Below are positions 36,905 through 63,307 of a DNA stretch of 64,000 nucleotides, piece after piece. The translations under genes were made by a program, and so were the position numbers. The notes beneath the pieces are model-generated. The model was given only the letters and a program-made list of their open reading frames with translations. It was not told the origin of the DNA and made no database searches. Source of the stretch: an uncultured Methylophaga sp. (GTDB lineage Bacteria > Pseudomonadota > Gammaproteobacteria > GCF-002020875); the NCBI GenBank assembly GCA_937877715.1, contig CALEHW010000046.1, forward strand, positions 89,690 through 153,689, written 5' to 3'. Numbering within the stretch: position 1 is the stretch's first letter; each line of letters starts with the position of its first letter.

Positions 36905-37603
36905 ATGAAAAAATCACGCCTATCAACCAGCATCTCAATTCTATTGCTTGGTCTATCCCTCTCTATTTCCTCCCCATCAAGTGCTGATCTGAACTCGGCA
37001 AAACATGCCATTACCAAAGGGAATGGAGAACTTGCGATGATGGAGATGAGTCGACTAGCCGGCGAGGGAAACAGTGAGGCACAGTATGAACTTGGAAAAC
37101 TCTACGCGGAGGGCAGACTGACTGACCCCGACCCCAGCCGCGCCATGCTGGCACTCACCCTAGCAGTTGAAAATGGCTATCACCATGCTGAACAACTACG
37201 TAAAGAACAGCAGAAAAAAATTAATCTGATACAGCTAGCTGCCCTGCAGGAACAGTTGGGCATTCTGTTCCAGGATGGTGGAGCAGTTGCCATAGACCCA
37301 GCTCGTGCCACTGATTGGCTTGGAAAACGAACCCTGAACCCTGTCCCATTCACAAATGAGGAGCGCGGGGAGATGGCACGTAAAATTGGCAAAATATTTG
37401 AAGAGAAAATCTTCAGTTTTACCGCTGCGCACACCTGGTACACTCTGGCTGAGGCCTTTGGAACCGAGCGTGCAGCAAAAGATAGAAAACGGATGGAACT
37501 GTTCCTGCAGGACCAGAGCATCTCCCAATCCAGAAATGATGCTATTAGCAAATACAAAAGTTACCTAAAAAGTCGCAAGAAAATGGTGGATGGGAAGCTA
37601 TAG
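36905..37603 (+). CDS. Secreted Sel1-like/TPR repeat protein
   Basis: Signal peptide ([27 protein letters not shown]), then Sel1-like repeats ([18 protein letters not shown]...). The start is taken at the internal ATG, which has signal-peptide logic. Confidence 0.6.
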
Positions 37604-40600
37604 GGAAACCTCTCGCGTTATCTGGTGCATTGGGAAATAGAGTACAAGCTTCTGAGGGCGATCCTCCATCTGCCGCAGCACCTCACCGTAACGCTGTAGC
37701 TGCGGAGTATAACGAGCCACCTCCTCATCGAGAAACCCCTCTAGATCGCCACCGCTATGGCTACTGGTCTTCCAATCCACAATCCAACGAGTACCTCTAT
37801 CATCCACAAATGTTCTATCGATGGTGACATCAAGCGCTCTACCCTTTGTTCGCGTTGAGAGGCTCCACTCACTCCTCGCCTCCGCATGTTCAGAGAGCAA
37901 ATAGCGGCCAGTCTCATCCTCCAGCACCAGGCGGAGTGCCTCTATCACCCTGTCTGTTGCTCTCCCCAGGGTGTCTGATGCCACTCCAAGCTGTCTCAAT
38001 TGATTTTCCGCCCTACCACGAATCGACATCAGATCAGATTCAAGCCATTTACCGACACCATCTTCTGTGATCTGCTGCAGAATTGCGTGCACCACAGTCC
38101 CGACATGTGCTGCACTGGCAGCCGCCCACTGATAGATCACCCTCTCATCACCGGTCGACGGCTTACCTGTCTGGATCGGTTCCGGAGGTTGCGGACAGCT
38201 CCAGATATCTGCGGTACGCTGTGGATGAGCACTACCACGAAGAGTTCTCTTACCACCCCTAACAGATTCCACCTCAACCTCTCCAGAGTCAAACAGCCTC
38301 TGATAATCAACCTTCACAACAGGCCATAACTGCTCAAGCAGAGAACCTGACTGCGGCTTACCAAGCTCTCCTGCAGAGTTGATGTTTACAGCACCAAACA
38401 AATGCAGTTTGCGTTCAGCTCGGGTAGCCGCTACATACAGCAGCCGCGACAGCTCATTACGCCCACGTGACTGTTCGATCTTTCTAATATATCTTCCCAA
38501 CCTGTCACCATCACTGCCCTGCTCTGCGTGACGAACCGGAGAGAGCAGCAGCTGCATACTCTCCTCAGACTCATCCGACACCCCCGGAACCTCCATCCAG
38601 TGCAGCAGTTTTTGCTGCTCTCCTCTCGGCTTTCTGCCCAGACCAGGCAGGATTACCGTATCAAACTGCAGCCCCTTAGATTTATGGATAGTCATAACCT
38701 CAACCGTGGTAGAGGGGACATCTGCATCACTCTCCTCTGCTCTGCCGGAACGTACATTCTGCTTCTCCAACTGTTCCCGCAGCCTGTTGAAGTCAATAAG
38801 CTCCCCCCCTTGCCCCATCTTTCTCAACAATTCAAGGAATGAGTCCGCCTCTCTCTGAGACCGGCCAGCCACCCCAAGCCTCTGATGTATGGCTGCCCCT
38901 CCAAGCCTGATCCAGGCGTGCTCTACCCATGACTCCAATACAGTTTCGCCGCGTTCATCAAAAATGGAATTCAACCTCTCGCACAACCACTGGACCCTCT
39001 CAACCCCAATCGGTGAGAGCTCTGCCAGACGAGACTCATCATGCATCAACTCCCAAAGTGTACGATCCTCAGCATCAGCAGTTAGATGCAGAAGATCCTC
39101 CAGAGAGAGGCCACTCCAGGGAGCCCGCAACAGAGCCAACCACGCCTCTCTGTCAGCCTGGTGCAACAGGGCACGGGTCAATGCCAACATATCACGTACC
39201 AGTGGGCGCTCCCCAAGTGACTCAATCTCAACCGCACGGTAGCTAATCCCGTTACTGTAAAGCTCTCTGGCAATCTCGCTCAGATGGCTACGGGAACGTA
39301 TCAGGATGGCAATTTTCCCTCCCCTGTCACCTATCTCAGCAATTTCCATCCTGATCAGCTCAACCACTCTAGCCGCCTCCACCTCATAATCAGCCATCAA
39401 CGCAGGGTGAACCGTTACCGACTGTACTGTGGTTTGGGGTTTTGTGGAGATTGATTCGGAGTAGTGAATCGCCCCACTAAAGCGGTCAGATCGTAATGGA
39501 AATATAGAGTTGAAACTATCATTAAACCAGCTTACAACCCCTTCCTCAGAACGGAAATTTGCTGCCAGCTTCCTGTATTCTAGGTGCAGGCCGCCAACCC
39601 CCTCGTTTATCGCTTTTATAAACAGCCCCACCTCAGCATGGCGAAAACGGTAGATAGACTGCATGGGGTCTCCCACCAGAAAGAGGGTGCGACCAGAGCC
39701 ATCATTTGCCCACTCTGCAGTCAGGCGACTCATAAGGTCGAATTGACCATGGGATGTATCCTGAAACTCATCAACCAGAATATGGGAGATCTGATGGTCC
39801 AGACGGAGCGCCAGATTGGTAGGCCGCTCCTCACTCCCAAGCGCCTGAAGAGCCCGTCTGGCAATCTCGTTGTGATCCACCACACCCTTCTCTTCAAACC
39901 ACCCCATCAACTCAATTTGTGCCATCAACAGCACCTGAAACAGGGAGGTGATGGTGTCCCACTGTGCATCCTCATACTGCACCGGCGGCAACAAGGGAAC
40001 CTGCTGGATTGCTGTAGCCGCCTCATGGTCTGACTCAACTCTCTGCAACAGAGAGAACATCCGCTGTTTTAGAACCTTGCCCTCTGCCCCCGGTGGAAAA
40101 CCGCTATTCTTGTTCCAGCTATTCTCTGACGCCCTGAACACCCCATCTTTTTTTAGAAATAGCGAGGCAATCCCCTGCCACTGCAGAATGAAAGATGGCT
40201 CTCCAGATGGTAGCTGACCAATCCCGCTACATGCAGCGACCTCGGCACTTTTTCCAATACTGTTCACAACCTCTGCTGCAGAAGATGCCAGCTCCACCAG
40301 TTGAGAGACACCATCCCTGCCTAACGCTTGCAGCAGTCCATCCCTGGCATTCTGTAGAGATTTCTCTACTGCCGAGCAGAGTGTTGCCTCCAGTGATTCC
40401 CGATCAATACCACCACCTGCACCTCTCGCCACATGAGGCAGCCACTGATCACGGTGGCCAAGCATCTCTGTCAGCATTCTCTCAAGTTGAGAGACATCGT
40501 TGTCGAGCCATGCCAGCAGTTGTGCTACTGCCTCACCATCCCTGCTCTCAAGTCGCTGAATAGTGCGTCGTGCCGCCCCAACAAATGCCTCCTCTGCATC

Positions 40601-41044
40601 ATCACTAATTCCCGGAACTCCCCCAAATGCAGCCATAACCGGCATCTGCCGAACCAGCTTTGCATTCAGACTATCCATGGTGCGAATCTCCAGCCTGCCC
40701 GGATTGGTCAACAGATTCCAGTTCAGGTTACGATCCTGTTGCAACACCTTGTTGGCCAACCCCCAAGTTGTAGCCAGATACGGCTCTTTCGGTTTCTGTT
40801 TACTGGCAGCCATCATCAATGACTCAAGCAGTCTGGTACGCATCTCACCAGCCGCCTTGCGGGTAAAAGTAATAGCCAGAATCTCCTCCGGATGGTTAAC
40901 CCCTGCCAACAGCGAGAGGAAGCGCTGTATCAGCAACTCGGTCTTTCCAGAACCTGCCGGGGCCTGAACAATTACCGAGAGCCGAGGGTCCAGCACCTCT
41001 TCACGAACTGCTCTGTCCTCACTCATAAGCCTGGAGTTACTCAT
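37598..41044 (-). CDS. addA: AddA-type helicase-nuclease (UvrD-like helicase with a C-terminal RecB-family nuclease)
   Basis: About 1149 aa. N-terminal UvrD/Rep Walker A (VQAPAGSGKT) and helicase motifs, then a C-terminal PD-(D/E)XK nuclease signature (RWIVDWKTS). The start is chosen 2 nt after the addB stop. Confidence 0.75.
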   Translation of the reverse strand: MSNSRLMSEDRAVREEVLDPRLSVIVQAPAGSGKTELLIQRFLSLLAGVNHPEEILAITFTRKAAGEMRTRLLESLMMAASKQKPKEPYLATTWGLANKVLQQDRNLNWNLLTNPGRLEIRTMDSLNAKLVRQMPVMAAFGGVPGISDDAEEAFVGAARRTIQRLESRDGEAVAQLLAWLDNDVSQLERMLTEMLGHRDQWLPHVARGAGGGIDRESLEATLCSAVEKSLQNARDGLLQALGRDGVSQLVELASSAAEVVNSIGKSAEVAACSGIGQLPSGEPSFILQWQGIASLFLKKDGVFRASENSWNKNSGFPPGAEGKVLKQRMFSLLQRVESDHEAATAIQQVPLLPPVQYEDAQWDTITSLFQVLLMAQIELMGWFEEKGVVDHNEIARRALQALGSEERPTNLALRLDHQISHILVDEFQDTSHGQFDLMSRLTAEWANDGSGRTLFLVGDPMQSIYRFRHAEVGLFIKAINEGVGGLHLEYRKLAANFRSEEGVVSWFNDSFNSIFPLRSDRFSGAIHYSESISTKPQTTVQSVTVHPALMADYEVEAARVVELIRMEIAEIGDRGGKIAILIRSRSHLSEIARELYSNGISYRAVEIESLGERPLVRDMLALTRALLHQADREAWLALLRAPWSGLSLEDLLHLTADAEDRTLWELMHDESRLAELSPIGVERVQWLCERLNSIFDERGETVLESWVEHAWIRLGGAAIHQRLGVAGRSQREADSFLELLRKMGQGGELIDFNRLREQLEKQNVRSGRAEESDADVPSTTVEVMTIHKSKGLQFDTVILPGLGRKPRGEQQKLLHWMEVPGVSDESEESMQLLLSPVRHAEQGSDGDRLGRYIRKIEQSRGRNELSRLLYVAATRAERKLHLFGAVNINSAGELGKPQSGSLLEQLWPVVKVDYQRLFDSGEVEVESVRGGKRTLRGSAHPQRTADIWSCPQPPEPIQTGKPSTGDERVIYQWAAASAAHVGTVVHAILQQITEDGVGKWLESDLMSIRGRAENQLRQLGVASDTLGRATDRVIEALRLVLEDETGRYLLSEHAEARSEWSLSTRTKGRALDVTIDRTFVDDRGTRWIVDWKTSSHSGGDLEGFLDEEVARYTPQLQRYGEVLRQMEDRPQKLVLYFPMHQITREVSL

Positions 41045-43688
41045 CTCTCTCAACCTCGTACTCCACACGACACAATGGCTCCAGTCCACAGTACTGACAA
41101 CTGCTCTTCCCTTTTAGAGGGTCAACCACAGCAATTCCCTCTCTGAACTCTCCTGCCAGCTCTGTTACAACTCTCTCCCACTGACTTATTTGCTGCTCCC
41201 ACCCCTCACTGACAACCACCTTTCTCTTGCCACCCCAGCCCTTGCCATCGGCCCCCTCAAGCAGACTCTCCTCCTGCTGCTCACCTTTATATGCAACCTC
41301 ACTAACCTGAATCTGCCCAAACAGTACTGCCGCAACATCATCCAGCAGAGTGGTATAGAGTGGTAACTGGGGCTCCTCCGGGCGCTCCCCCTGCCATCCT
41401 GATCTACTGACCTTGCCACTTTTGTAATCAATCAGAATCCGCCTTCCATCATCCAGTCGATCAACTCGATCCATCTTCACAGAGATAGAGAGCCCATCCA
41501 GAATAACTTTGTGCAGACGCTCCATCTCCTCAACCCTGAAGCTGGTTACACGCCCCCGATCAAGCTCCAGAAAACGCATTGCAAGCTGAGCCAAACGGGC
41601 CGATTCATTAACTGCAAAACCATCCCCCATACGGTCCTGACGAGAGAGACGGAACTTCTCGACTGTCTCCTCTGCTGCTGCTGCAACCAGAGCGGTCAAC
41701 TCCTGCTCACTCAGTTGATTCAGCCGGTCTGACGAGAGCCCCAACCTCTCCCAGCACCGCTCAAGCAACCCATGTATCAGTGTGCCTCTCTCGCGTGGAT
41801 CAAGTCCCAACTGCTCGCTTTCCATGCTATCTGCCTGCAGTCGGTGGCGCACAAAAGCTCTGAATGGACACTGTGACTGGTTTGCAAGAATCGAGCTGCC
41901 TCCGCGCACCCTGCTTCCACGCCCCACAGATAGTGTCCCCTCACTAATTTCCTCCAGCACCAGACTATTGCCATCAAGCCACCACTTTTCAACTGTGGTT
42001 TTCAACCCTAGGCTTCTGTAATCCATCTGAGGAATATCATCGACTAAGGGGGTCTCCCGTAGCCCCTCCTCAGCCCCATCCTCACTACTCTCAGATAGAG
42101 TGAAGAAAACTTGGTCTGCTGCAATTGCGAATCCAGCCACCATCTCTTCTGCAATCTTCAGACTATTGGCCCTGTCTACTGCAGGCACCTGTCTGCGCTG
42201 CCACTCCAGTGGCAAAAATGGCGACAGCTCCGCAGTTGATGGCCAATTCCGATCCTCCATCCCCATTACCCAAAGTGCATCGTAATGTACTCCACACGCC
42301 TCTTCCGGAGTCAGAATATCTACAACTGCACTCTCCCCTTGTGGGGGCATATCCATTCTGGAGAGAATCTGTCTTAATCCAGAGAGGGCCTCCGCAAGGG
42401 AGAGGATTCCAGTAAAGTCTCCAACTGCAGAAAAACGGTCGAGACCATCTCTCCAGCCATCATAGGCAGATAGCGAGATATCACTCTTCTCCCCGTTCTC
42501 CGCCCACTCAAAAAATGAGAGTAGATGGCTAAAACGTTCAGCCCACTCTGTGGTGGTCAACCGTGACTCATTTAACTCAAGCTCCTCCACCGCATGCAAG
42601 GCACCAAGAAAGCGTGGAGCCTGAAGACCAGACTCTCCATCATCCTTATCAAAGAGCCGGACCAGGGTAGCAGTATAGACATCAGGGTTACGCCAACGCC
42701 TTAGCTGAAGATCAAATGTTGATCTTGCCCCCATCTCTGTCCCCTGTAGCAACCAGGGTGAACGCAACAGCGCAGACGCCTCCGCCAGAGGCAGCCCTCT
42801 CTGTACCATCCTTATCAACTGCAGTGCAGTATGGATACGTGGATCCTGCAGCAGAGCCGTACCTCTATTAAACCGATATGGAAGTTCCATGCCAGATTTT
42901 GCCTGGAGCAGAGTTGCAGGAGCGAGAATGGTTCTGAACAGTTTCTCAATACGGTGCCGTCTTCCATACAGGCCGGGTACTACCACAGCCAACCTGTGGT
43001 CCGGACAGTCCTGCAGGTACTCTCTTAACCAGTAGGCAACCGCTATCTCCTCCTCACTCTCACTAGGCAGAATCGTCTTTACTGCCACACTGCTTGTAGC
43101 TACACCCTCCTCACTTCTCAACTCACTACCAAGCTTATTGAGTGTCTGCAGAATCTGTCGTTCAGCTCTACTCCATTGGGACTCACCATATGTATAGACA
43201 GTCTCAGGAGTGGCAATATCTCCAGAGAGCAGCAGTTTTACCGCCCATTCAGCAAGACTGGCACGCTCCAATAGCCCTCTCTGTTGGCACTGCTCCGCAA
43301 ACCTTGATTGCCACTGCTGAAACAGATCCAGCTCCTGCAGATGTGAGTCCTTAACCAGACTCTGGCCATCCTCTCTCCACTGATGAAATATTCTATTGGC
43401 AGATACCGCGTGGTCTACCAGCTCGCCCTTCCGCAAAAATGAACCATCGTCTAAACTTTCCTGCGGAATAGTCTGCTGCCATATGATCCTCTCCTGTTCT
43501 GGCGTCAACAGGTGCGAAAGTTCAGTTCCTCGCTGCAACTGTTCATTCCACTGCTGCTGAATCCAGGCCTGAATAGAAAAAACTGGGGGGGTCTCCCATA
43601 CAGCAACCCCTTTTTGCAACTGCTCATCACCCCACCGGTCCCTGAGATATCGAGCCTGTCTGGCAGTTGCAGTTAGAGTAAGATTCAT
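41037..43688 (-). CDS. addB: AddB-type nuclease subunit with a C-terminal Fe-S cysteine cluster
   Basis: About 883 aa with no full helicase motor. It has a C-terminal PD-(D/E)XK motif (ILIDYKSGK) and CQYCGLEPLC (CxxCx5C) as in AddB iron-staple domains. The start is taken at the conserved-looking MNLTLTATARQARYL. The track ORF continues 88 codons upstream through low-quality sequence. Confidence 0.7.
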   Translation of the reverse strand: MNLTLTATARQARYLRDRWGDEQLQKGVAVWETPPVFSIQAWIQQQWNEQLQRGTELSHLLTPEQERIIWQQTIPQESLDDGSFLRKGELVDHAVSANRIFHQWREDGQSLVKDSHLQELDLFQQWQSRFAEQCQQRGLLERASLAEWAVKLLLSGDIATPETVYTYGESQWSRAERQILQTLNKLGSELRSEEGVATSSVAVKTILPSESEEEIAVAYWLREYLQDCPDHRLAVVVPGLYGRRHRIEKLFRTILAPATLLQAKSGMELPYRFNRGTALLQDPRIHTALQLIRMVQRGLPLAEASALLRSPWLLQGTEMGARSTFDLQLRRWRNPDVYTATLVRLFDKDDGESGLQAPRFLGALHAVEELELNESRLTTTEWAERFSHLLSFFEWAENGEKSDISLSAYDGWRDGLDRFSAVGDFTGILSLAEALSGLRQILSRMDMPPQGESAVVDILTPEEACGVHYDALWVMGMEDRNWPSTAELSPFLPLEWQRRQVPAVDRANSLKIAEEMVAGFAIAADQVFFTLSESSEDGAEEGLRETPLVDDIPQMDYRSLGLKTTVEKWWLDGNSLVLEEISEGTLSVGRGSRVRGGSSILANQSQCPFRAFVRHRLQADSMESEQLGLDPRERGTLIHGLLERCWERLGLSSDRLNQLSEQELTALVAAAAEETVEKFRLSRQDRMGDGFAVNESARLAQLAMRFLELDRGRVTSFRVEEMERLHKVILDGLSISVKMDRVDRLDDGRRILIDYKSGKVSRSGWQGERPEEPQLPLYTTLLDDVAAVLFGQIQVSEVAYKGEQQEESLLEGADGKGWGGKRKVVVSEGWEQQISQWERVVTELAGEFREGIAVVDPLKGKSSCQYCGLEPLCRVEYEVERDE

Positions 43689-43782
43689 CCGACAGACCTT
43701 ATCACCATGGAAAAAATGGATCGACAGGAAATCACAAATCAGTCCATAATTAGAAACCCCTAATACAACGGAATGCAATACG

Positions 43783-44877
43783 ATGAGTACAACTCCAGAT
43801 GACAGAGGCCAGATTCGTGAAATCCGCATAAACCCTATTGTTCCCAGTGAATCTGTACTGGTGGCAACCGCCCGCAGTATGCGGCCGATCAAGGAGGAGC
43901 AGCAGGCCCCACGGGATACCCGTAGCCATGTGGAGAGCTGCCCTTTCTGCAAGGGAAATGAGGAGAAGACCCCACCTGCAATTGTTACTTATCCGGACGA
44001 TGAGTCATGGAAAATTCGTGTTGTAGAGAACCTCTTTCCTGTCCTTGGCAAGGCTAGTGATGAATCTCAGAAAAACTTGAATTTTGGTTTGCAGTCAGCA
44101 ATTGAGGGATATGGTCACCATGAGGTGATGATCGATCACAGCAACCATGGGGCTGTAGTCAATGAGATGAGTGAGGAGCATCTAACCTTACTGTTTGGTG
44201 CCTATCAGGAGAGGATGCGTAAGCTGTATGAGAGTGAGAGAATTCGCTTTGTCCTGGTTTTTAAAAATTACGGCCCTGCCGCTGGTGCCAGCATCCGCCA
44301 CACGCATAGCCAGATTATTGCCATGCCGGTGGTACCACAGAATGTCCATGACGAGGTAATAAACAGTGCTGCTCACTACCAAAAACATCATCAATGCATA
44401 TTCTGCACCCTGATTGACGAGGCCCTCACCTTCGAGACCACAATATATGATCGTCACTCAGGTGAGGTGCGCAGAAAAATAAATGTGGGGCAGTATGTAG
44501 TCGACAGATCAGACCACTTTATCGCTATCAAGCCATTTGCCAGTCGCTTTGAGTGGGAAGTGCATATTTTGCCACTGGTTCATCAAAGTGATTATCTGAA
44601 CTCCTCTGCAGAGGAGTTGGCAGACTTCGCAAAAATTGTAAAACGGACTATGCAGAGACTCGATGGGGTGCTTGGTGGAGTACAGTACAACTACTTCCTC
44701 CACTCAATCCCCCACAATGAGGATTGCGAAAGCTGTCACGCAAGTTTCCACTGGCACCTCGAGATCGTACCTCGCACCAGCATCCCTACAGGATTTGAAC
44801 TTGGGTCAGGCCTCTTTGTAAATACCATAAGCCCGGAACAGGCTGCTGAACAGCTACGTAATACAGTAGTGGGGTAA
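43783..44877 (+). CDS. GalT-family (HIT superfamily branch III) nucleotidyltransferase, a candidate APS:phosphate adenylyltransferase (ADP-sulfurylase) or Ap4A phosphorylase-like enzyme
   Basis: 364 aa with a CPFCKGNE zinc-knuckle motif in the first half, the GalT/Apa-type active site RHTHSQII (HxHxQ) and a degenerate second half-domain (HWHLEIVPR). Confidence 0.7.
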   Translation: MSTTPDDRGQIREIRINPIVPSESVLVATARSMRPIKEEQQAPRDTRSHVESCPFCKGNEEKTPPAIVTYPDDESWKIRVVENLFPVLGKASDESQKNLNFGLQSAIEGYGHHEVMIDHSNHGAVVNEMSEEHLTLLFGAYQERMRKLYESERIRFVLVFKNYGPAAGASIRHTHSQIIAMPVVPQNVHDEVINSAAHYQKHHQCIFCTLIDEALTFETTIYDRHSGEVRRKINVGQYVVDRSDHFIAIKPFASRFEWEVHILPLVHQSDYLNSSAEELADFAKIVKRTMQRLDGVLGGVQYNYFLHSIPHNEDCESCHASFHWHLEIVPRTSIPTGFELGSGLFVNTISPEQAAEQLRNTVVG

Positions 44878-44966
44878 GAAGCACACAAAGGAGTCTGCAG
44901 AGATTGCAAATCTTGTCTGATTCAAAGAGAATTACGCCACTCTAATATAGATCTGAAAATAATAAA

Positions 44967-45380
44967 ATGACTACAACAACCAAGATGAGTGATGAAGAGT
45001 GCCGCTTTTGTAATGCCAGCCCAAATCGACGGATTTTGATTGAAGGGAAGTACGGCTTTGCAGCACTGGATCGCCATCCAGTCAATGAGGGGCATTTCCT
45101 GGTGATCCCCTACCGCCATTTTCCAGATTACTTTGACATAGGTGATGAAGAACGTGAGGAGTTATGGTCACTTGTGGCTCAGGGGAAAAAATTAATCGAT
45201 GAGAAGCACAACCCAGACGGCTATAACATTGGCATCAATGTAGGCGAGTCTGCTGGCCAATCGGTACCCCACCTACATATCCACGTTATTCCACGCTATA
45301 AAGGTGACGTAGAAACCCCCAAAGGTGGGGTCCGTGGAGTTGTTCCAGAACAAAAACTCTATACCCTTCAACCAGATTAA
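44967..45380 (+). CDS. HIT-family (Hint-like) nucleotide hydrolase/transferase
   Basis: 137 aa with a canonical histidine triad PHLHIHVIPR and an N-terminal CRFC zinc motif. Lies directly downstream of the GalT-family gene. Confidence 0.75.
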   Translation: MTTTTKMSDEECRFCNASPNRRILIEGKYGFAALDRHPVNEGHFLVIPYRHFPDYFDIGDEEREELWSLVAQGKKLIDEKHNPDGYNIGINVGESAGQSVPHLHIHVIPRYKGDVETPKGGVRGVVPEQKLYTLQPD

Positions 45381-45429
45381 ATCGGAGATAGAGGTTACGC
45401 GAAAAACTGTCTTATTTTAGGCGCACGAA

Positions 45430-45464
45430 AAAAATCCCAGCTCACCACGAGCTGGGATTTTTTA
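45430..45464 (+). terminator. Rho-independent terminator (bidirectional) after the HIT gene
   Basis: aaaaaaatcccagctc-accacg-agctgggattttttatt is a perfect 9-bp GC-containing stem flanked by A-run and T-run. Confidence 0.65.
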
Positions 45465-45484
45465 TTACCCTACAGTAATCGAAA

Positions 45485-45643
45485 TTACGGTTTCTTGGGT
45501 GTAGTGTATGGAACCTCTTTCTGGAACGGTTCCCAGATTGTTTCATAACCAACAAAGCCCTGCTCAGTCGGCGCTTTCTGGCGGGTTGTCAGGAAACGAC
45601 TATGCCCTGTAGGGACCGTTGGTTTTGTGTTTTCTTCGCTCAT
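45485..45643 (-). CDS. Unannotated 52-aa ORF (MSEENTKPTVPTGHSRFLTTRQKAPTEQGFVGYETIWEPFQKEVPYTTPKKP)
   Basis: ATG preceded by a good Shine-Dalgarno (AGAGGTGA, 6 nt spacer). Below the ORF-track length cut-off. No recognisable family. Confidence 0.3.
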   Translation of the reverse strand: MSEENTKPTVPTGHSRFLTTRQKAPTEQGFVGYETIWEPFQKEVPYTTPKKP

Positions 45644-45796
45644 AAATCACCTCTTGCTAAAAAAATACAGGATGGCCACTACAAGTGGTTGCAGCTAAAA
45701 ACCATCTGATATCTACTATAAAAAATTCCTTTATCGTTGAATTGGTGCACTGTGTAACACATTAAATGTGCACCTCTATTACTCAGTTAATTCTAC

Positions 45797-46318
45797 TTAC
45801 TCCGTCAATTCTACCATGTTCTCAATTTCTGGCTCTGGTTCGATCGGTCCACCCTCTTTGATCTCCTCATCCGTTGCATCACGCACGGTGAGAATCTCGA
45901 GCTTGAACAGAAGGTCCCGACCACAAAGTGGGTTGTTGCCATCAATAGTCAGACTCTTCTCATCGATTCGGGTAACCAGAAAGTTCTTGGTATCACCTTT
46001 ATCATTCTCCATGACAATGGTGGTTCCAACCTCATGGTACTCCTCAGGAACATTCTCCAGGTAATCAGTGATCACTAGAGACTCATCACGCTCGCCGTAG
46101 AGCAGGCTCCCATCAATGGGAACCTCAATAACCTCGCCAATAGAGCATCCCTCCAGGGCCTCCATAATGGGCTCAGAGAGAACATCATTGTGGCCATGAA
46201 TGTAACCAATCGGGAATTCCACCGCTGCCAACACCGCCCCACTCTTCTGGTCTAGAACCTGGTAGGTCAGCTCAACAAGCTTGTTTTTCTGAATCGTCTC
46301 ACTCATAACAGTCTGCAC
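45797..46318 (-). CDS. slyD: FKBP-type peptidyl-prolyl cis-trans isomerase, SlyD-like (lacks the His-rich tail)
   Basis: 173 aa. YIHGHNDVLSEPIMEALEGCSIGEVI aligns with SlyD YLHGHGSLISGLETALEGHEVGDKF. The IF-domain insertion and DGNNPLCGRDLLFKLEILTVRDATDEEI align with SlyD DGNHMLAGQNLKFNVEVVAIREATEEEL. Confidence 0.75.
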   Translation of the reverse strand: MQTVMSETIQKNKLVELTYQVLDQKSGAVLAAVEFPIGYIHGHNDVLSEPIMEALEGCSIGEVIEVPIDGSLLYGERDESLVITDYLENVPEEYHEVGTTIVMENDKGDTKNFLVTRIDEKSLTIDGNNPLCGRDLLFKLEILTVRDATDEEIKEGGPIEPEPEIENMVELTE

Positions 46319-46320
46319 AA

Positions 46321-46671
46321 CTAGAAAATAGAGGCACTAAAGATCTTGACCCCATCCTTTTCATAGCCTAGTACCAATCTGCCAAGCCACTCACCCTTCT
46401 TCTCGGTACTTCGCACCCTAAACAGAACAGTGACATGCTCGTCACGACGAATCATTCCCAGATAGTCTGACTCCTCGGAGAGGTTTCGTGCCAGTTGACT
46501 TCTGGCAAACTGCTTTCCAACCTCCATCTCATTGAGACCAAACAAAAGATCCTGGGAGAAGTGACGGGTAAACATTCCATACTCACCCTCATTGGAATAC
46601 TTAATCAAGTCATTCCACATTGGAAGTCCAACTTCCAAAATCTCCTCATCACTATCGTCAATAATATTCAT
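46321..46671 (-). CDS. Hypothetical 116-aa acidic protein downstream of aprA, translationally coupled to the SlyD-like gene
   Basis: Protein-like composition. Its stop abuts the SlyD-like start. No family recognised. Confidence 0.5.
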   Translation of the reverse strand: MNIIDDSDEEILEVGLPMWNDLIKYSNEGEYGMFTRHFSQDLLFGLNEMEVGKQFARSQLARNLSEESDYLGMIRRDEHVTVLFRVRSTEKKGEWLGRLVLGYEKDGVKIFSASIF

Positions 46672-46795: not shown

Positions 46796-48688
46796 TTAGG
46801 CTGCCTCGCCTTCCTGTCCCTCATGATCCTCATCGAACAGGTGATACAGTGGAGCCTTCTCCATAGTGTACTCACCAGTCTTTGGATCACGGCGAGAAAC
46901 TGTCAGAACATGCCAGTTCTTATCATCCAGCTTCATTGCGTCACCACGGTAGTAGTAACCAGGCCAGCGAGTTTCCTTACGGAACAGGGTGTGCTGCATT
47001 ACAGACTCGGAGGCAAGCAGACGATGCTTCAGCTCCCATGCGCGCAGCAGCTCATGAATATCAGAAGCAGCAATCTTCTCCATATCCTCTTCCAGAGTCT
47101 TCATCTTCTTCAGACCGATGTTCAGCAGCTTATCGTTAGTCATGTAGTTCACCGTTACACCACCAGCGTACTCGTCCATCATCTTCTGCATACGATCAAG
47201 ACCTTGACGTGGGTTGATGTAGTTAGGGTTAACAGTTCCAGCAACGATATCGTTACGGTAAACTTTATAGTGCTCCATTGGTTTGTAGATCTCTTCCTTG
47301 CGATCATTGATCTGCTTCTCAGAGATGGTAATTCCATTGGCCTTACCATCATCGATGTACTTGCAAGCAGCCTTGGCAGCCAAACGACCTTCGGTGAATG
47401 AACCAGAAGAGAACGCATGTGGTGTACCACCAACCGCATCACCAGCACCAAACAGACCTTCTACAGTAGTCATACGGTTGTAACCCCAGAAATACTCATC
47501 AGGAGAAACATCCTCAGGACCAGAACACCATGCACCACAACCGGTAGCGTGTGAACCCATTACATAAGGCTCAGACGTAGTCAGCTCAGGGTTCTCATAC
47601 TTTGGATTTACATCAGTTGCAGCCCAAAGTACAGCCTGACCAACTGTCATACCCAAGAAGTTGTGCCAGCCAATCTCCTCAAGGTGAGGATCCTGGAATG
47701 AGTGCATAGTAACCATGTGAATCGGGCCACGTCCTGCATTGACCTCGTTGATCAGAGCATGGTTACGCAAACATGTTGGGATTGGCTTATGAGACAAGTG
47801 CTGGTTTTCTGTATCCAGATATTCCTTACCAACCATCTCACTCAGAGCCGGGAACCACTTGGACTCATACTCCTCACCATTACAGTTCTGGGTGTAAGTC
47901 TTAAGGTGTAGGAAGTAAGCACCAACCGGGCCGTAACCATCCTTGAATCGAGCAAGTACGATACGGTTTTCCATCTGGGTCATCTTCGCACCAGCCTGAA
48001 TCATCAGACCATATGCAGATCCAGAAGACCACGGTGCATACCATACACGTCCAGCACCCTCACCAACGGAGCGAGGCTTGAATATGTTAGATGCACCACC
48101 AGCACCAACAATAACAGTCTTGGACTTGAATACGTGGTAGTTACCAGTACGTACGTTGAAACCAACAGCACCAGCAACACGATTCTCTTTGCTCTCATCC
48201 ATCAGCAGGTGAGTAACACAGATACGGTTGTAGACCTTGTCAGCAGACTTGGTAGCAGCCTCAGCCACAAGCGGCTTGTAGGACTCACCGTGAATCATGA
48301 TCTGCCAGCGACCCTCACGCAGATAGGCGCCAGTCTTCGAGTCACGCATGATAGGCATGCCCCACTCCTCGAACTGGTGTACTGCGGAGTCAACATGACG
48401 CGCCATGTCAAAAGCAAGATCCTCACGAACCATTCCCATCAGGTCCATACGTGCGTAGCGAACGTGATCTTCCGGATTATTCTCTCCGAAACGTGTTCCC
48501 ATGTAGCAGTTAATTGCATAAAGACCCTGTGCAACTGCACCGGAACGGTTGATATTTGCCTTCTCAGCAATAACGATTTTCTTGTCTTGGCCCCAGAAGC
48601 GCGCCTCCCAGGCTGCACCAGTACCGCCGAGCCCTGCGCCCGCGACTAGAACATCGATATTGTCTTCTACGATAGTTTTGTAAGCCAT
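46796..48688 (-). CDS. aprA: Adenylylsulfate (APS) reductase alpha subunit
   Basis: 630-aa FAD flavoprotein with a dinucleotide-binding N-terminus (VLVAGAGLGGTGAAWEA) and fumarate-reductase-family fold. Immediately preceded by aprB, so the stop and start are tightly coupled. Confidence 0.9.
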   Translation of the reverse strand: MAYKTIVEDNIDVLVAGAGLGGTGAAWEARFWGQDKKIVIAEKANINRSGAVAQGLYAINCYMGTRFGENNPEDHVRYARMDLMGMVREDLAFDMARHVDSAVHQFEEWGMPIMRDSKTGAYLREGRWQIMIHGESYKPLVAEAATKSADKVYNRICVTHLLMDESKENRVAGAVGFNVRTGNYHVFKSKTVIVGAGGASNIFKPRSVGEGAGRVWYAPWSSGSAYGLMIQAGAKMTQMENRIVLARFKDGYGPVGAYFLHLKTYTQNCNGEEYESKWFPALSEMVGKEYLDTENQHLSHKPIPTCLRNHALINEVNAGRGPIHMVTMHSFQDPHLEEIGWHNFLGMTVGQAVLWAATDVNPKYENPELTTSEPYVMGSHATGCGAWCSGPEDVSPDEYFWGYNRMTTVEGLFGAGDAVGGTPHAFSSGSFTEGRLAAKAACKYIDDGKANGITISEKQINDRKEEIYKPMEHYKVYRNDIVAGTVNPNYINPRQGLDRMQKMMDEYAGGVTVNYMTNDKLLNIGLKKMKTLEEDMEKIAASDIHELLRAWELKHRLLASESVMQHTLFRKETRWPGYYYRGDAMKLDDKNWHVLTVSRRDPKTGEYTMEKAPLYHLFDEDHEGQEGEAA

Positions 48689-49173
48689 TAGTGATATACC
48701 CCTTCTTTCATGATTAGGCCATTGGACTCAAGGGTGTGCAAACCACCTTCATCGAGACGAATGTATTTTGGTTCGTTAAACAGTAGCAGGTCATTATCAC
48801 GATGCTCCTGAGTTGGAGCAGGGACATCAGCAAGCTGTGGAATTTCCTGTCCCCATGGCTTTGTTGTAATAGGCGCCAGCAGATTCAGATCAGTCTCACC
48901 ATTGCGAGACTTGATGCGCCATGCGATAACACCCTTCTCCTCATCACGGTCCACACGTACAGAGTGACCCAGAGGGGCAAAGTCGGCATAACCACGAACA
49001 TCAATTGCATGGTGAGGACATGCCTTCACGCATGAGTAGCACTCCCAACACATATTAGGCTCAATATTGTAGGCACGACGATATTTATCATCGATATGCA
49101 TGATATCTGATGGACAGATATCAACACAGTGTCCACAACCGTCGCAACGGGTCATATATACAAAAGTAGGCAT
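48688..49173 (-). CDS. aprB: Adenylylsulfate reductase beta subunit (2x[4Fe-4S])
   Basis: 161 aa with two ferredoxin motifs (CDGCGHCVDICP and CWECYSCVKACP) and the AprB-specific C-terminal tail. Confidence 0.9.
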   Translation of the reverse strand: MPTFVYMTRCDGCGHCVDICPSDIMHIDDKYRRAYNIEPNMCWECYSCVKACPHHAIDVRGYADFAPLGHSVRVDRDEEKGVIAWRIKSRNGETDLNLLAPITTKPWGQEIPQLADVPAPTQEHRDNDLLLFNEPKYIRLDEGGLHTLESNGLIMKEGVYH

Positions 49174-49213
49174 AATCTTTCCTTTTTGTTTAGATTAATC
49201 TTGAATCTTAAAA

Positions 49214-50035
49214 TCAGTAGTGGCTAGGCTCTTCGCGCTTAATGCCAAGACCCATGTTGGATGGGTTTTTACCCATGTACTCAGGGATATCTGGAAATCT
49301 TGCATGCGTAGCAGCAGCAGACAGGTCAGGTATCTCAGGCAGATTCTCATTAGAACCATCAGCATGAACTGTACGCTTGTTATAAGCCGCAGCAGGCTTG
49401 AAGAACATATGGGAGAACTTAGACCAGTAAACGCCGCCGAATAGTGAAGCTGTAGAAATGATCACTAGGGCAAACCATGCTCCGGTGCCACCACCAGTTA
49501 GTGACCAACCTATAGCTGCTGTTGATGTAGCCATCAGCGAGAGGCTGAACATATCCCTTCTAAGCTTGATATTTGTCCATGTATTACCTTCTGCAGCCAC
49601 ATCAACCTTGAATACAAACCAGAACCACCAGCTACCTACGAACAAACTGATAGCACCCAGATGCCAGAACAAGTTCAATGTTGCATCGGCAGCATTATCA
49701 CCAAAAATCATCATTGCAGTTGCTGCATTAAATGAGATAAAACCATACATGGTCAACAGATGTACCAGCCTACGAGTCGGGTTACAGAACTCTCCAGACA
49801 GCGCCACATCAGTAACAACAGTCTTGACCAGAATTGAGGCAGCAGGAGCAGTTTTTGTTGCATTCTGCTTATCTTTTGCAGCTTTCTCGAAGAAGTACTG
49901 AGCACTCTTCTTGTGCATCATATCCAGCACAGTCATTACAATAACTAGCGCAATCATTACGATCACATACGTCTGCATAGACGCATATGTGATGCCGGCA
50001 TCCACTAATGACTGGATAGGGGTATTACTTAACAT
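49214..50035 (-). CDS. aprM: APS reductase membrane anchor AprM-like protein
   Basis: 273 aa with about 5 predicted TM helices and a hydrophilic C-terminal tail. It sits between sat and aprB, as aprM does in sat-aprMBA loci of purple sulfur bacteria. Confidence 0.65.
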   Translation of the reverse strand: MLSNTPIQSLVDAGITYASMQTYVIVMIALVIVMTVLDMMHKKSAQYFFEKAAKDKQNATKTAPAASILVKTVVTDVALSGEFCNPTRRLVHLLTMYGFISFNAATAMMIFGDNAADATLNLFWHLGAISLFVGSWWFWFVFKVDVAAEGNTWTNIKLRRDMFSLSLMATSTAAIGWSLTGGGTGAWFALVIISTASLFGGVYWSKFSHMFFKPAAAYNKRTVHADGSNENLPEIPDLSAAATHARFPDIPEYMGKNPSNMGLGIKREEPSHY

Positions 50036-50091
50036 AGTGTTTTCCTTTTAAAATTAAATAAAAATAAACATTAACAATAATCAAGAACGAC

Positions 50092-51309
50092 TTACTGGGC
50101 AGAGTGCCCCTTCATCTCAATCTTTACATTCTCATCATCACTAAGACTTGCATAGTAGTCCTGAAGCACCTTGGCAACCTCTGGACGACTGAAGGTAGCA
50201 GGAAGCTCCTCACCCTCAGACAACATCTTGCGTACCTTGGTACCAGACAACAGAATACGATCATCCTTGCCATGAGGACAGGTCTTCATAGAAGCCATTC
50301 CGTCACAGGCATTACACCAGAAGGTCCAGTCGATCTTCAGTGGCTTAGTCTCCAGTGCGCCCTCAGGGATTTCGTCAAAGATCGACTGTGCATCAAAGGG
50401 GCCATAAAAATCGCCGACACCAGCGTGGTCACGACCAACAATCAGGTGCGAACAGCCGTAGTTCTGGCGGAATACGGCGTGCAACAGCGCCTCACGGGGG
50501 CCTGCAAAACGCATATCCAGCGGATAACCTGCCTGTACAACACTGTTGGGAACAAAATAGTTATCAATCAGAGTCTGGATCGCCTCAGAGCGAACCTCTG
50601 CAGGGATATCACCCTTCTTCAGCTTACCCAGTGTGGAGTGAACCAGAACACCGTCCAGAGTCTCTACCGCAATTTTGGCAAGATACTCATGAGAGCGATG
50701 CATTGGGTTACGGGTCTGGAATGCCGCAATAGTATTCCAACCCTTTGACTCGAATAACGCACGGGTCTGCTCAGGTGTCATGAATTGCTCACCATAAGTC
50801 TCGGGGAATCCACCCAGAGAGAGGACCTTGATTGGACCGGCAAGATTCACCTCTCCCTGATCCATAACCATCTGCACACCTGGATGCTCCAGATCAGTGG
50901 TCTTGTATACAGACATGCACTCATGCTCTTTATCAATACCGTATTTCTCGGTAACTGTCATGGTTGCAACAATATTCCCGCTTTCCTCATCAAACAGAGC
51001 AACATCAGAACCCTCATGGGTGTTGTCGGCAGTGGCACTGTCAGTAGAGATGGTTACCGGAATTGGCCAGAACAGGCCGCTCTCCATCTTGTATGAGTCA
51101 CAAACACCCTTCCAGTCAGCGTGGTTCATGAAACCGTCAAGTGGGGTAAACCCACCGATACCCAGCATATAGATATCACCAGCCTCACGTGAGGTAATCG
51201 TTACCTTGGGCAGCGTCTCTGCGCGTGCCTTCTCATCCTCGAGGGCGATCCCCTCAAGCAGTAGCGGCTTCAACTCACCGCCACCATGTGGTTTAACTAA
51301 ATTTGACAT
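50092..51309 (-). CDS. sat: Sulfate adenylyltransferase (dissimilatory-type ATP sulfurylase)
   Basis: 405 aa with ATP-sulfurylase motifs [11 protein letters not shown] and GRDHAGVG. Heads the sat-aprM-aprB-aprA operon. Confidence 0.9.
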
Positions 51310-52326: not shown

Positions 52327-53868
52327 TTGCAGAATCCGGCTGTTACTATGTACAGTCATCCAATGCACTCTAAACACCGCCTCTCTCTCCTCACTCAGAC
52401 AGGAATTATCATTGGGATAATCAGCCTGCTGGCAGTCATCGGCATTAGCAGCTCGGTTTTTATCACCCAGACCATTCAAGGTGCAGGAACCACCATCAAC
52501 ACCTCCGGCACCCTGCGCATGTTCGCCTACAAAATCGCCACCCAGATGATGCGGGATCAGCGTGAGGAGGATCCCACCTCAACTGACATACGCGAGCTGA
52601 TCAGTCGCTTTGAATCCCAACTCAACCACCCATCTCTGCAACACTCCATTCCGCAACCATCACAGAACCCGAAAGAATCAGACACTGTTGACTTACATCC
52701 GCTCTACACACTTTACAACTCTATCCAGTGGCGCTGGCATGAGGAGATTCAACCACTACTGCTAAGCTATGCAGCACTTCTGGATATGGAGAGCGGCGAG
52801 GAGTCCATGGGCAAGCTCAAGCACACCATCCACAACTCCTACCAGCAAAGCTACCTGTCGATAATTGATGATTTCGTATTTGACATCAACAACATGGTTA
52901 AACTGATCGAAGAGCAGACTGAGTCCAGAATTGAGCTACTACGCAACATTGCGTATGTATCACTACCCCTACTGCTACTCTCCATTCTGGCGGCACCATT
53001 TCTACTCTACTACAGGGTTCTGGTTCCATTAAAAGATCTACTTGAGATCTCGCAACATGTACGCCAACGCGACTTCTCCCGCCAGGCTAAATATACTCGT
53101 AAGGATGAACTGGGCGAACTAGCCAGAGCCTTCAACCTGATGAACTCAGACCTCTCTGCCACCTATGCCGAGCTGGAAGAGCGGATTATGGAGAAGACCC
53201 AAGCCCTGATTGATGAGTCCAACAGGATCACCCTTATGGAGGAGCGTAATATCATCGCCCAGGAGCTACACGACTCCCTAGCCCAATCCATCTTCTATAT
53301 CAACATTCAGATTAGCCGAATCAAGACCCTGATAAGAAGAGAAGCCCCGCCAAGCCAGCTACTCCCCATCATTTATGAGTTTGCGACAACCAATGATGAG
53401 GCCGATCGTCAGCTACGGGAGCTGATCTCCACCTTCAGAATCAAAATCAACCCCGAGGGGCTGACAGCCGCAATCAACGAAATTATAACCAAATATATGG
53501 GGAGAGAATCTGTAACACTAAAGTTTTACAACCATATTCCCGATTTCTCCTTCACCCACAGCGAGGAGGTCAACATGATTCAGATTACCCAAGAGGCGAT
53601 CTCCAACATCATCAAACATGCCAACGCAACCTCCGGCACCATTGTGCTTGACCACGATGGTGAGAACAACCTAGTGACACTGACTATTGATGATGACGGG
53701 GGCGGAATCCCCGAAAACCCTTACCGCCATAACCATTTTGGTCTCAAAAACATGGAGGAGCGCGCAGAAAACATCAATGGGAATATCTCAATTTACCAAC
53801 AAGCAGATGGCGGCACCAGGATAGAGCTTGATTTCAACCCAGCACTAACCCAGGAGAGCAGGCTGTAG
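52327..53868 (+). CDS. narX: Nitrate/nitrite sensor histidine kinase NarX-like
   Basis: Periplasmic sensor domain with a P-box-like TSGTLRMFAYKI, two TM helices, HAMP, an H-box ELHDSLAQ and a HATPase_c domain. Confidence 0.8.
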   Translation: MQNPAVTMYSHPMHSKHRLSLLTQTGIIIGIISLLAVIGISSSVFITQTIQGAGTTINTSGTLRMFAYKIATQMMRDQREEDPTSTDIRELISRFESQLNHPSLQHSIPQPSQNPKESDTVDLHPLYTLYNSIQWRWHEEIQPLLLSYAALLDMESGEESMGKLKHTIHNSYQQSYLSIIDDFVFDINNMVKLIEEQTESRIELLRNIAYVSLPLLLLSILAAPFLLYYRVLVPLKDLLEISQHVRQRDFSRQAKYTRKDELGELARAFNLMNSDLSATYAELEERIMEKTQALIDESNRITLMEERNIIAQELHDSLAQSIFYINIQISRIKTLIRREAPPSQLLPIIYEFATTNDEADRQLRELISTFRIKINPEGLTAAINEIITKYMGRESVTLKFYNHIPDFSFTHSEEVNMIQITQEAISNIIKHANATSGTIVLDHDGENNLVTLTIDDDGGGIPENPYRHNHFGLKNMEERAENINGNISIYQQADGGTRIELDFNPALTQESRL

Positions 53869-53982
53869 TTGGCTGCGGCAGGCATGGGTAACTAGCTAAA
53901 GTAATAGCGCAGGCAAGCCATATTCCTCTATACTCCAAAAGAATATTATAAAAAATACCCCTGACCAAAGGCTAAAAAGACA

Positions 53983-54633
53983 ATGAGTGAATTTGAATCA
54001 AAATCTATCTCTCTGCTACTGATTGATGACCACCCACTTATACGCAAGGGCATTATCCAACTACTGGAGCTCCACGAGGGGATTCAGCTAGCGGGCGAGG
54101 CAGATGGTGGTGCCGATGGGCTGAAACTGATCGAGAAAAAAGAGCCAGATATGGTGCTGCTTGATCTCAACATGAGCGAGATGGATGGCCTCACCACCCT
54201 GAAAAAAATCAAGAAGAGATGGCCGAATATTCGGGTGGTGATCCTTACAGTCTCCGACAACCCACAGAATATTATCCAGGCATTTCGTAACAAGGCAGAT
54301 GGCTACCTGCTGAAAAATGCAGATCCGGAGAAGATCGTGGACCATTTGATCCAGGTAATGCACGGGGTGACAATTGTCAGTCCTGAGATCGCCAAGATCC
54401 TTGCCCGGTCACGCACCGATAAAAATAATCTGCCGGAACTCAATCTAACCCGCCGCGAGGAGGAGGTGTTGCGCCTAATTGCCGAGGGGCTCTCCAACCA
54501 GGATGTTGGAAATCGTCTTGGTATTTCGGTCTGGACCGCCAAGGTACATGCCAAACACATCCTCAAGAAACTTGGTCTCAATAGCCGTAATGAACTGATC
54601 GTCTGGGCTATCCGAGAGGGGATGACCAGCTAA
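53983..54633 (+). CDS. narL: Nitrate/nitrite response regulator NarL-like (REC plus LuxR-type HTH)
   Basis: 216 aa with a receiver domain (LLIDDHPLIRKG ... DLNM) and a C-terminal LuxR/FixJ HTH (LTRREEEVLRLIAEGLSNQDVGNRLGISVWTAKVHAKHILKKL). Confidence 0.85.
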   Translation: MSEFESKSISLLLIDDHPLIRKGIIQLLELHEGIQLAGEADGGADGLKLIEKKEPDMVLLDLNMSEMDGLTTLKKIKKRWPNIRVVILTVSDNPQNIIQAFRNKADGYLLKNADPEKIVDHLIQVMHGVTIVSPEIAKILARSRTDKNNLPELNLTRREEEVLRLIAEGLSNQDVGNRLGISVWTAKVHAKHILKKLGLNSRNELIVWAIREGMTS

Positions 54634-60536: not shown

Positions 60537-60747
60537 TTCTCATTTGAATTGATCAAGATCAAATATTCTTACCGTATAGTTGTTGACGCAGTATATGATT
60601 TTTGAGATAAATGCCGCTCACATATGTTTATGTGGGAATAACTGACAGTATTTGTTGGTTATTCTCTGAAGAAGTCGGTAGTGGAGGGCCGACCATACGA
60701 CCTCTCCTGCCACAAATGTAAATGTAACAAAAAGAGGAGAAGTATCT

Positions 60748-63294: not shown

Positions 63295-63307
63295 GGAGGG
63301 CATACCA

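Follow-up and report, generated by a model that had tools for sequence, protein, structure and literature searches.

What do two adjacent genes of the histidine triad (HIT) superfamily do beside a dissimilatory sulfur gene cluster, and do they belong together? The question is raised by a 64,000-nucleotide stretch of contig CALEHW010000046.1 (assembly GCA_937877715.1) from an uncultured Methylophaga sp., referred to here in its full length as the window. The first gene (43783-44877, plus strand, ATG start) encodes a 364-amino-acid (aa) protein of 41.3 kDa in the GalT branch of the superfamily, and the second (44967-45380, plus strand, ATG start, with an alternative ATG start at 44985) encodes a 137-aa HIT protein. 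An earlier reading of the sequence (the original prediction) had proposed that the GalT-like protein is an adenylylsulfate:phosphate adenylyltransferase (APAT, gene apt, formerly known as 'ADP sulfurylase'), paired with a Hint-like partner next to sat-aprMBA, which encodes ATP sulfurylase (Sat) as well as the adenosine 5'-phosphosulfate (APS) reductase AprBA with its AprM-like membrane anchor. Both open reading frames (ORFs) are present with the motifs quoted from their translations, and sat-aprMBA (46796-51309) is indeed close by on the minus strand, the ends of aprA and of the GalT-like gene being 1.9 kb apart. Our joint reading, to which we give a probability of about 0.8, is that the 364-aa protein would be an APAT acting on the APS made by AprBA, and that the HIT protein would represent a separate family linked to the apr genes rather than the conserved partner of APAT.

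The assignment of the 364-aa protein starts from its likeness to AAF64398.1 from Thiobacillus denitrificans, with 68% identity and 80% similarity (536 bits) between residues 1-361 and residues 1-369 of the latter. This entry, which corresponds to UniRef100_Q9LA72 ('Adenylylsulfate:phosphate adenylyltransferase [Thiobacillus denitrificans]'), was reached via the members of the 90% clusters of Thiobacillus homologs. For the purification and cloning of the T. denitrificans enzyme, two later papers cite Bruser, Selmer and Dahl (J Biol Chem 2000, 275:1691; cited in PMC6382920 and PMC8232776). The window protein contains the motifs C53-P-F-C56, H173-T-H175-S-Q177, C205-I-F-C208 and H323-W-H325-L-E327, and both of its halves align to the structure 1z84, with an active HTHSQ at 173-177 and a degenerate HWHLE at 323-327, as expected for the architecture of the GalT branch. 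Pfam recognizes the GalT N-half with 61.5 bits (cut-off 22.1); the C-half scores 25 bits over residues 229-359, below its cut-off of 29.2, and DUF4921 and DUF4931_N are matched as well. The mass of the window protein is 41,334 Da and that of AAF64398.1 without Met1 is 41,386 Da; the subunit of the purified enzyme is reportedly 41.4 kDa, a size that the window protein shares.

Conservation within the family points in the same direction. Among 20 orthologs 161 columns are invariant, including C53, C56, H113, H173, H175, Q177, C205, C208, H323, H325 and E327. Four of these residues (C53, C56, H113 and H173) align with the corresponding residues of 1z84 and likely form a structural zinc site. A homology search with the 364-aa protein gave 2,730 matches, of which the best 120 are all 357-401 aa long, about 68-75% identical, and derived from Thiobacillus, Thiomargarita, Sulfuricaulis, Acidiferrobacterales and Hydrogenophilaceae. 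In a library clustered at 50% identity a single representative (65% identity, 500 bits) stands for the whole APAT clade; full-length representatives come next at 48% and 47% (349 and 343 bits), and then a cloud at 33-41%. Within the clade about 70% identity is conserved across beta- and gammaproteobacteria. Because of the full-length identity of 68%, scores below the cut-offs of the galT models and the tight cluster at 50%, the proposal that the protein is an APAT is strongly supported, making it a probable APAT ortholog, one more representative of an enzyme family already known.

The 137-aa protein is a member of another branch of the superfamily. It carries C12-R-F-C15 near its N-terminus, HLHIHVI at 102-108 and PKGGVRGVVP at its C-terminus, and scores 82.7 bits with the Pfam HIT model (PF01230, cut-off 21.5). 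A family search returned 1,999 matches, the best 120 of which are 69-92% identical and 131-147 aa long. In the family alignment (A2) the mean column identity is 80%, and CRFC, HxHxHxx and the C-terminal PKGGVRGVIP..KLY are invariant. A predicted model with a mean predicted local distance difference test (pLDDT) of 77 matches HIT folds. Ranked by sequence and fold, the closest solved relatives are the mycobacterial HIT-type diadenosine tetraphosphate (Ap4A) phosphorylases, followed by Bacillus Hit, Fhit (E = 3e-11 to 4e-15) and Hint1 (E = 3e-9 to 2e-12). The protein therefore lies closer to the Fhit/Ap4A-phosphorylase branch than to Hint, and the description as a Hint-like partner of the GalT-like protein is not supported, the conserved neighbor being aprMBA-p116-slyD. 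Two specific assignments were rejected: as an Rv2613c-type ATP adenylyltransferase (NF052622) the protein reaches 79 bits against a cut-off of 290 and lacks the N-terminal extension, and as a Hint/HinT purine nucleoside phosphoramidase (PRK10687) it reaches 28.4 bits against a cut-off of 206.

The genomic neighborhood of this family is dominated by the APS reductase genes. All five HIT homologs that were looked up on long contigs adjoin the genes aprM-aprB-aprA-p116-slyD-like, where p116 encodes a 116-aa protein and slyD-like a putative peptidyl-prolyl isomerase, while the genes flanking this block vary. A metagenome scan with the HIT family alignment yielded 80 loci, 25 with a HIT protein at least 65% identical and 55 with more distant ones. 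At least 600 bp of upstream sequence is available in 19 of the 25 close loci, and in 11 of these 19 the slyD-like gene is the next gene upstream in the same orientation, at a distance of about 35-90 bp; where at least 4 kb is present on both sides, apr genes are found in five of six. Among the 55 distant HIT genes two loci are linked to apr, with HIT proteins at least 98% identical to each other; here aprMBA is divergent from HIT-sat, and AprA and Sat are 75% and 58% identical to those of the window. Together, the 23 linked loci form about seven groups at 85% HIT identity.

These loci show at least five arrangements: slyD-HIT, slyD-X369-HIT, HIT 2-3 kb upstream of aprM, aprM divergent from HIT-sat, and the convergent slyD and HIT genes of the window. 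The common order is aprM-aprB-aprA-p116-slyD-like-HIT. No apt gene was found in any other apr-linked HIT locus. Since the linkage to apr persists across loci that lack apt, the conserved association of the HIT gene is with the APS reductase cluster and not with APAT. The HIT protein is part of a distinct conserved family that recurrently has aprMBA, p116, the SlyD-like gene and a gene for a 52-aa protein (p52) as its neighbors. In the searchable literature 'histidine triad', 'HIT family', SlyD and these small proteins are not coupled to aprBA or aprM, and the association between HIT and apr is the most novel part of the present analysis, being absent from that literature.

Some further genes recur around the HIT gene. 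A 369-aa and a 286-aa protein are encoded next to it in several loci (L081, 4877-5986 and 6417-7277; L169; L092; L141, 1788-3011), and neither has a homolog in the window. For the 369-aa protein, a 34% identical relative in L141 bears TPR repeats; the 286-aa protein stands beside HIT in at least ten loci, and no family match is recorded for the called gene. In L141 and L145, which represent a different lineage (AprA 75% identical) and where aprA-aprB-aprM is divergent from HIT-sat, the region downstream of aprA encodes a TPR protein and a DsrE2-like protein, and sat is followed by a gene for a class-V aminotransferase (cysteine-desulfurase-like).

In the window itself, the minus-strand cluster begins with sat (50092-51309), encoding a dissimilatory ATP sulfurylase with Pfam matches to ATP-sulfurylase (299 bits) and PUA_2 (177 bits). 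It is followed by the gene for the AprM-like membrane anchor of 273 aa (49214-50035), which falls outside curated families; in every related locus the gene just upstream of aprB encodes a protein about 50% identical to it, and AprM has been described before (PMC3779200). The genes aprB (48688-49173; TIGR02060, 201.5 bits, cut-off 135.65; Pfam APS-reductase_C) and aprA (46796-48688; TIGR02061, 1070.7 bits, cut-off 641.75) encode the beta and alpha subunits of APS reductase. The p116 gene (46321-46671) is preserved as 65-74% identical copies after aprA in related loci; it directly follows aprA in nearly all of those that extend past aprA, and is displaced in L090. No match to p116 was found in Pfam and NCBIfam profile searches. 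The SlyD-like gene (45797-46318) encodes a putative FKBP-type peptidyl-prolyl isomerase of 173 aa, with a score of 67.7 bits for NCBIfam PRK10737 that is below the cut-off and no Pfam match, and lies between p116 and HIT in most related loci.

Between the SlyD-like gene and the terminator described below, 330 nt seem empty, and this interval is occupied by p52 (45485-45643, minus strand), which is missing from the ORF list, has a strong ribosome-binding site, AGAGGTGA, and lies downstream of the SlyD-like gene. Homologs of the 52-aa protein with 60-70% identity are encoded in 19 further HIT/apr loci (tblastn), within about 1.5 kb of HIT and on either strand; the protein has no match in Pfam, NCBIfam or PDB. 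As p52 fills the apparent gap, the minus-strand unit reads sat-aprM-aprB-aprA-p116-slyD-like-p52.

The plus-strand genes and this unit converge on one hairpin (45429-45466, both strands), AAAAAAUCCCAGCUC-ACCAC-GAGCUGGGAUUUUUU, about 50 nt past the HIT stop codon. It consists of a 9-bp G+C core extended by A6/U6 and a 5-nt loop, with a folding energy of -30.5 kcal/mol (z = -4.1) that none of 200 shuffled sequences equaled; a consensus terminator scan missed it and gave weak sites only. The strong terminator that had been proposed after HIT is therefore real; it is an intrinsic terminator that is bidirectional, since the hairpin has both an A-run and a U-run, and it serves the APAT-HIT unit as well as the convergent apr unit, closing both. 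In the 89-bp spacer between apt and HIT there is no terminator-like structure (z = +0.4) and, in a consensus scan, no promoter match, and an Rfam search of 43400-46000 returned nothing at E up to 1. Co-transcription of apt and HIT is plausible.

Upstream of apt, a candidate sigma-70-like promoter, TCGACA-18-CATAAT (43721-43750, plus strand, 10 of 12 matches, from a consensus scan only), sits in a divergent spacer of 95 bp. On the other side of this spacer, the ORF list places a 971-aa minus-strand ORF (41037-43952) that overlaps the start of APAT by 170 nt; judged from the translation, its true start is most likely the ATG at 43688 (MNLTLTA...). Its product has a PD-(D/E)XK nuclease domain (Pfam), and together with a UvrD-type helicase-nuclease gene (37598-41089, minus strand) it makes an AddAB-like pair, divergent from apt. 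Elsewhere in the window, a sensor kinase and response regulator pair is located downstream of sat (52327-54633), and a set resembling periplasmic nitrate reductase occupies 59952-63754, recognized by translations only: a NapC-like tetraheme protein, an 848-aa NapA-like molybdopterin protein and a NapB-like protein. Such a Nap-like set would suit sulfur oxidation coupled to nitrate reduction.

How the two proteins could function is suggested by their characterized relatives. By analogy with T. denitrificans APAT and with the HIT enzymes of the GalT branch, His175 of HTHSQ would attack the alpha-phosphate of the APS made by AprBA, sulfate would leave with formation of a covalent enzyme-AMP, and phosphate would then take over the AMP to give ADP, which adenylate kinase could turn into ATP and AMP. 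APAT would in this way give the organism a pyrophosphate-independent exit from APS beside Sat. The catalysis and physiological role are inferred from these relatives; orthology, motifs, size and genomic setting are features of the sequence itself. For the HIT protein, whose gene in the lineage of the window stands behind apt, in inverted orientation where the apr cluster ends, the most likely role is nucleotidyl transfer from APS, or from an adenylyl compound derived from APS, to water or phosphate. Fhit is an APS sulfohydrolase, and Hint4 and DcpS both hydrolyze and phosphorolyze APS (PMC4613722 and its reference 11), so that the statement in the original prediction that HIT enzymes act on APS is documented. 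An activity of the HIT protein toward APS is chemically reasonable because these three enzymes act on it, and the protein may be an APS-turnover enzyme dedicated to AprBA.

To place APAT in a wider context, we scanned apt loci using one genome per species, and at least 551 species proved to carry a relative. From these the 80 best loci were taken with flanks of up to 10 kb, and 45 of them span at least 20 kb. Nearly all of these 80 genomes belong to sulfur oxidizers (Thiobacillus, Hydrogenophilales, Sulfuricaulis, Sulfuriferula, Thiomargarita, Acidiferrobacteraceae), so that host taxonomy speaks in favor of the co-occurrence with apr/sat genes expected in the original prediction. The window genome encodes the dissimilatory AprBA, and the original prediction had read meaning into the adjacency of apt to sat-aprMBA; apr or sat genes are found within 10 kb in just one of the 80 loci, L001, so this adjacency lost its weight. 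The L001 genome (APAT 97% identical) is of the same lineage as the window and close to Candidatus Thiopontia autotrophica, and the 95-bp spacer upstream of apt is 100% identical in the two.

Several of our findings tell against the joint reading. With the window proteins as tblastn queries, 79 of the 80 apt loci have no HIT, aprA, aprB, aprM or sat within 10 kb. In the Thiobacillus and Hydrogenophilales loci (L004-L080) apt is part of a housekeeping run of hisS, a BamB-like gene, der, APAT, hflX and hflK; in another Piscirickettsiaceae metagenome-assembled genome it lies between dapA/bamC and an ACT-domain gene, and in Thiomargarita among type II secretion genes. Because apt lacks a conserved context of sulfur genes, synteny lends no independent support to a role in APS conversion. 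The nearest solved relative is an ADP-glucose phosphorylase, the range of substrates in the family extends beyond APS, and APAT itself may have another physiological substrate. The AlphaFold model of APAT made from alignment A1 is poor (pLDDT 59), since the alignment is too shallow, all of its rows being at least 67% identical. On the side of the HIT protein, locus L109, with 10 kb upstream and 6.6 kb downstream of HIT, contains no apr gene, and the linked HIT loci, in about seven groups at 85% HIT identity, come from a limited number of gammaproteobacterial lineages.

Some of the same observations favor the alternative that survives best, in which a protein of the APAT fold phosphorolyzes APS in vitro and serves the cell as a housekeeping nucleotide phosphorylase for ADP-glucose, Ap4A or a similar compound, outside dissimilatory sulfur oxidation. 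The closest solved relative, from Arabidopsis, is a phosphorylase of this kind, the contexts of 79 of the 80 apt genes are housekeeping or variable and free of sulfur genes, and the Thiobacillus enzyme is said to have high Km values, about 0.3 mM for APS and 12 mM for phosphate. Nevertheless, the APAT clade is set sharply apart from the rest of the family (500 bits versus at most 349), it is conserved at about 70% across beta- and gammaproteobacteria, and its named hosts are overwhelmingly sulfur oxidizers. This combination of separation, conservation and hosts fits a sulfur-specific role better than general housekeeping, and we regard the housekeeping alternative as unlikely.

The original prediction favored a dedicated operon of two genes whose products, APAT and HIT, would work on APS as a functional pair; this idea fares poorly. 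The two genes do lie on the same strand, separated by a spacer that lacks a terminator and followed by a single terminator after HIT, the same arrangement is present in L001, and HIT enzymes are capable of hydrolyzing or phosphorolyzing APS (PMC4613722). However, the arrangement is confined to one lineage, being present in one of the 80 APAT loci and in none of 88 other HIT loci. A regular-expression search for HxHxHxx ORFs near apt genes returned L001 only, apart from spurious antisense ORFs in high-G+C loci, and no Pfam domain of the GalT family occurs among the called genes at the further HIT loci on long contigs. Moreover, HIT keeps its link to aprMBA-p116-slyD in lineages without a nearby apt. 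The absence from 79 of the 80 loci indicates that both the adjacency of apt to sat-aprMBA and its pairing with HIT are peculiar to this lineage.

The junction between the two units argues likewise against an old operon. The spacer between HIT and slyD cannot be aligned between the window (45381-45796) and L001 (11598-12086), and the two carry p52 in opposite orientation, a difference that suggests inversion or rearrangement, local and recent, at the point where the convergent units meet. With this, a functional pair of APAT and HIT appears to us quite improbable. As a separate observation, the SlyD-like proteins of the window and L001 share only 62% identity, against 85-97% for the flanking genes, which suggests that this segment is mosaic or recombined.

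Returning to the HIT protein as a separate, apr-linked family, a more far-reaching proposal is that HIT, p116, the SlyD-like protein and the 52-aa protein constitute an undescribed accessory module of the membrane-bound APS reductase in gammaproteobacterial sulfur oxidizers, with HIT turning over APS. We offer this tentatively, as a possibility to which we attach somewhat less than even odds. If it were true, HIT would be either a second, non-GalT 'ADP sulfurylase' (APS:phosphate adenylyltransferase) or a hydrolase of APS by which AMP is recycled; an aprMBA...HIT operon that lacks sat would be a self-contained module for the oxidation of sulfite to sulfate, and in the lineage of the window APS would be consumed by three neighboring enzymes, namely Sat, APAT and HIT. 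What is observed is that HIT stays with aprMBA through several rearrangements. Should APS be its substrate, the old reports of ADP-sulfurylase activities in purple sulfur bacteria could find an explanation, and the textbook Apr/Sat pathway would gain a new enzyme.

For APAT the importance lies in its annotation. In the indirect pathway of sulfite oxidation APAT is a textbook alternative to Sat, and T. denitrificans has both enzymes; the window organism likewise encodes both Sat and APAT, in agreement with the original prediction, and their co-presence is not new. The enzyme was characterized in 2000 and is widespread in sulfur oxidizers (at least 551 species genomes, about 70% identity). Nevertheless, the relatives listed from NCBI, UniRef and JGI are named DUF4931, DUF4921 or GalT, with the original deposit (AAF64398.1 / Q9LA72) as the sole exception. 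None of the curated NCBIfam and Pfam models matched the 364-aa protein at a level that assigns APAT, a homology search seeded with the ortholog of T. thioparus gave no informative names, and the literature on DUF4931 amounted to an unrelated structural preprint. One sulfur-gene database holds just one core and six total apt sequences (PMC10199032). As a result of this misnaming, reconstructions of the sulfur cycle overlook or deny a pyrophosphate-independent route from APS to sulfate.

The names given to its relatives lead to the last alternative, a Leloir galactose-1-phosphate uridylyltransferase, whose probability we consider close to nil: the Pfam GalT N-half is above its cut-off and JGI and some NCBI records call relatives 'UDPglucose--hexose-1-phosphate uridylyltransferase' or 'galactose-1-phosphate uridylyltransferase', but the NCBIfam galT equivalogs (TIGR00209 / PRK11720) stay below cut-off (82.1 versus 102.1 and 103.6 versus 448), the identity to an enzyme purified as APAT is 68%, galK, galE and galM are absent from the surrounding 28 kb (the window ORFs between 36 and 64 kb) and from the conserved neighbors of the 80 related loci, and the host lineages are chemolithoautotrophs, all of which agrees with the best homologs not being bona fide Leloir enzymes.

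Compared with known enzymes, the 364-aa protein is most similar to T. denitrificans APAT, which has the same CPFC, HTHSQ, CIFC and HWHLE motifs in 371 aa and differs in a 9-residue Gly/Ala/Ser-rich insertion before HWHLE that is missing from the window protein. The hosts are both equipped with Sat and AprBA; T. denitrificans is a sulfur oxidizer, and the window host is a gammaproteobacterium. In contrast to the Thiobacillus orthologs among der, hflX and hflK, the apt gene of the window has the aprA end of sat-aprMBA at a distance of 1.9 kb. The GalT branch has been described as made up of the groups GalT, Ap4A phosphorylase and APAT (bioRxiv 10.64898/2026.09.13.751320). Within it, the best solved relative is the ADP-glucose phosphorylase At5g18200 of Arabidopsis (PDB 1z84, 2h39; E = 5.5e-57, 197 bits), which shares both half-domains, the zinc knuckle and HxHxQ, and also transfers AMP to phosphate; it is eukaryotic, acts on ADP-glucose and lies well outside the APAT cluster, with a score like that of the relatives at 33-41% identity. 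E. coli GalT (PDB 1hxp) has the same fold family and the HxHxQ nucleophile motif, but the match is only E = 3e-13, and GalT transfers a uridylyl group whereas APAT transfers an adenylyl group. The yeast Ap4A phosphorylases Apa1 and Apa2 are HIT enzymes of the GalT branch that use phosphate as acceptor and are also listed as sulfate adenylyltransferase (ADP); the Pfam model Ap4A_phos_N covers only 30 residues of the HxHxQ region of the window APAT with 21.6 bits (cut-off 23.1), and Apa1 and Apa2 are of a different subfamily.

The HIT protein shares the HxHxHxx chemistry of nucleotidyl transfer with Fhit, Hint4 and DcpS, which are eukaryotic and have no link to dissimilatory sulfur genes. It is closer to the mycobacterial Ap4A phosphorylases (M. 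tuberculosis Rv2613c, PDB 3ano and 3wo5; M. avium, PDB 6af2; E about 1e-20), with which it has the core NxGxxAGxS...HxHxHxxPR in common and whose folds match its model at 38-40% identity, with a root-mean-square deviation of 1.7-2.3 A over about 95 residues. The mycobacterial enzymes have an N-terminal extension of about 60 residues (the match starts at chain residue 68-86), whereas only about 20 residues precede the match in the window protein. Unlike the mycobacterial Ap4A phosphorylases, it possesses its own N-terminal CRFC, an invariant C-terminal motif and a linkage to the apr genes.

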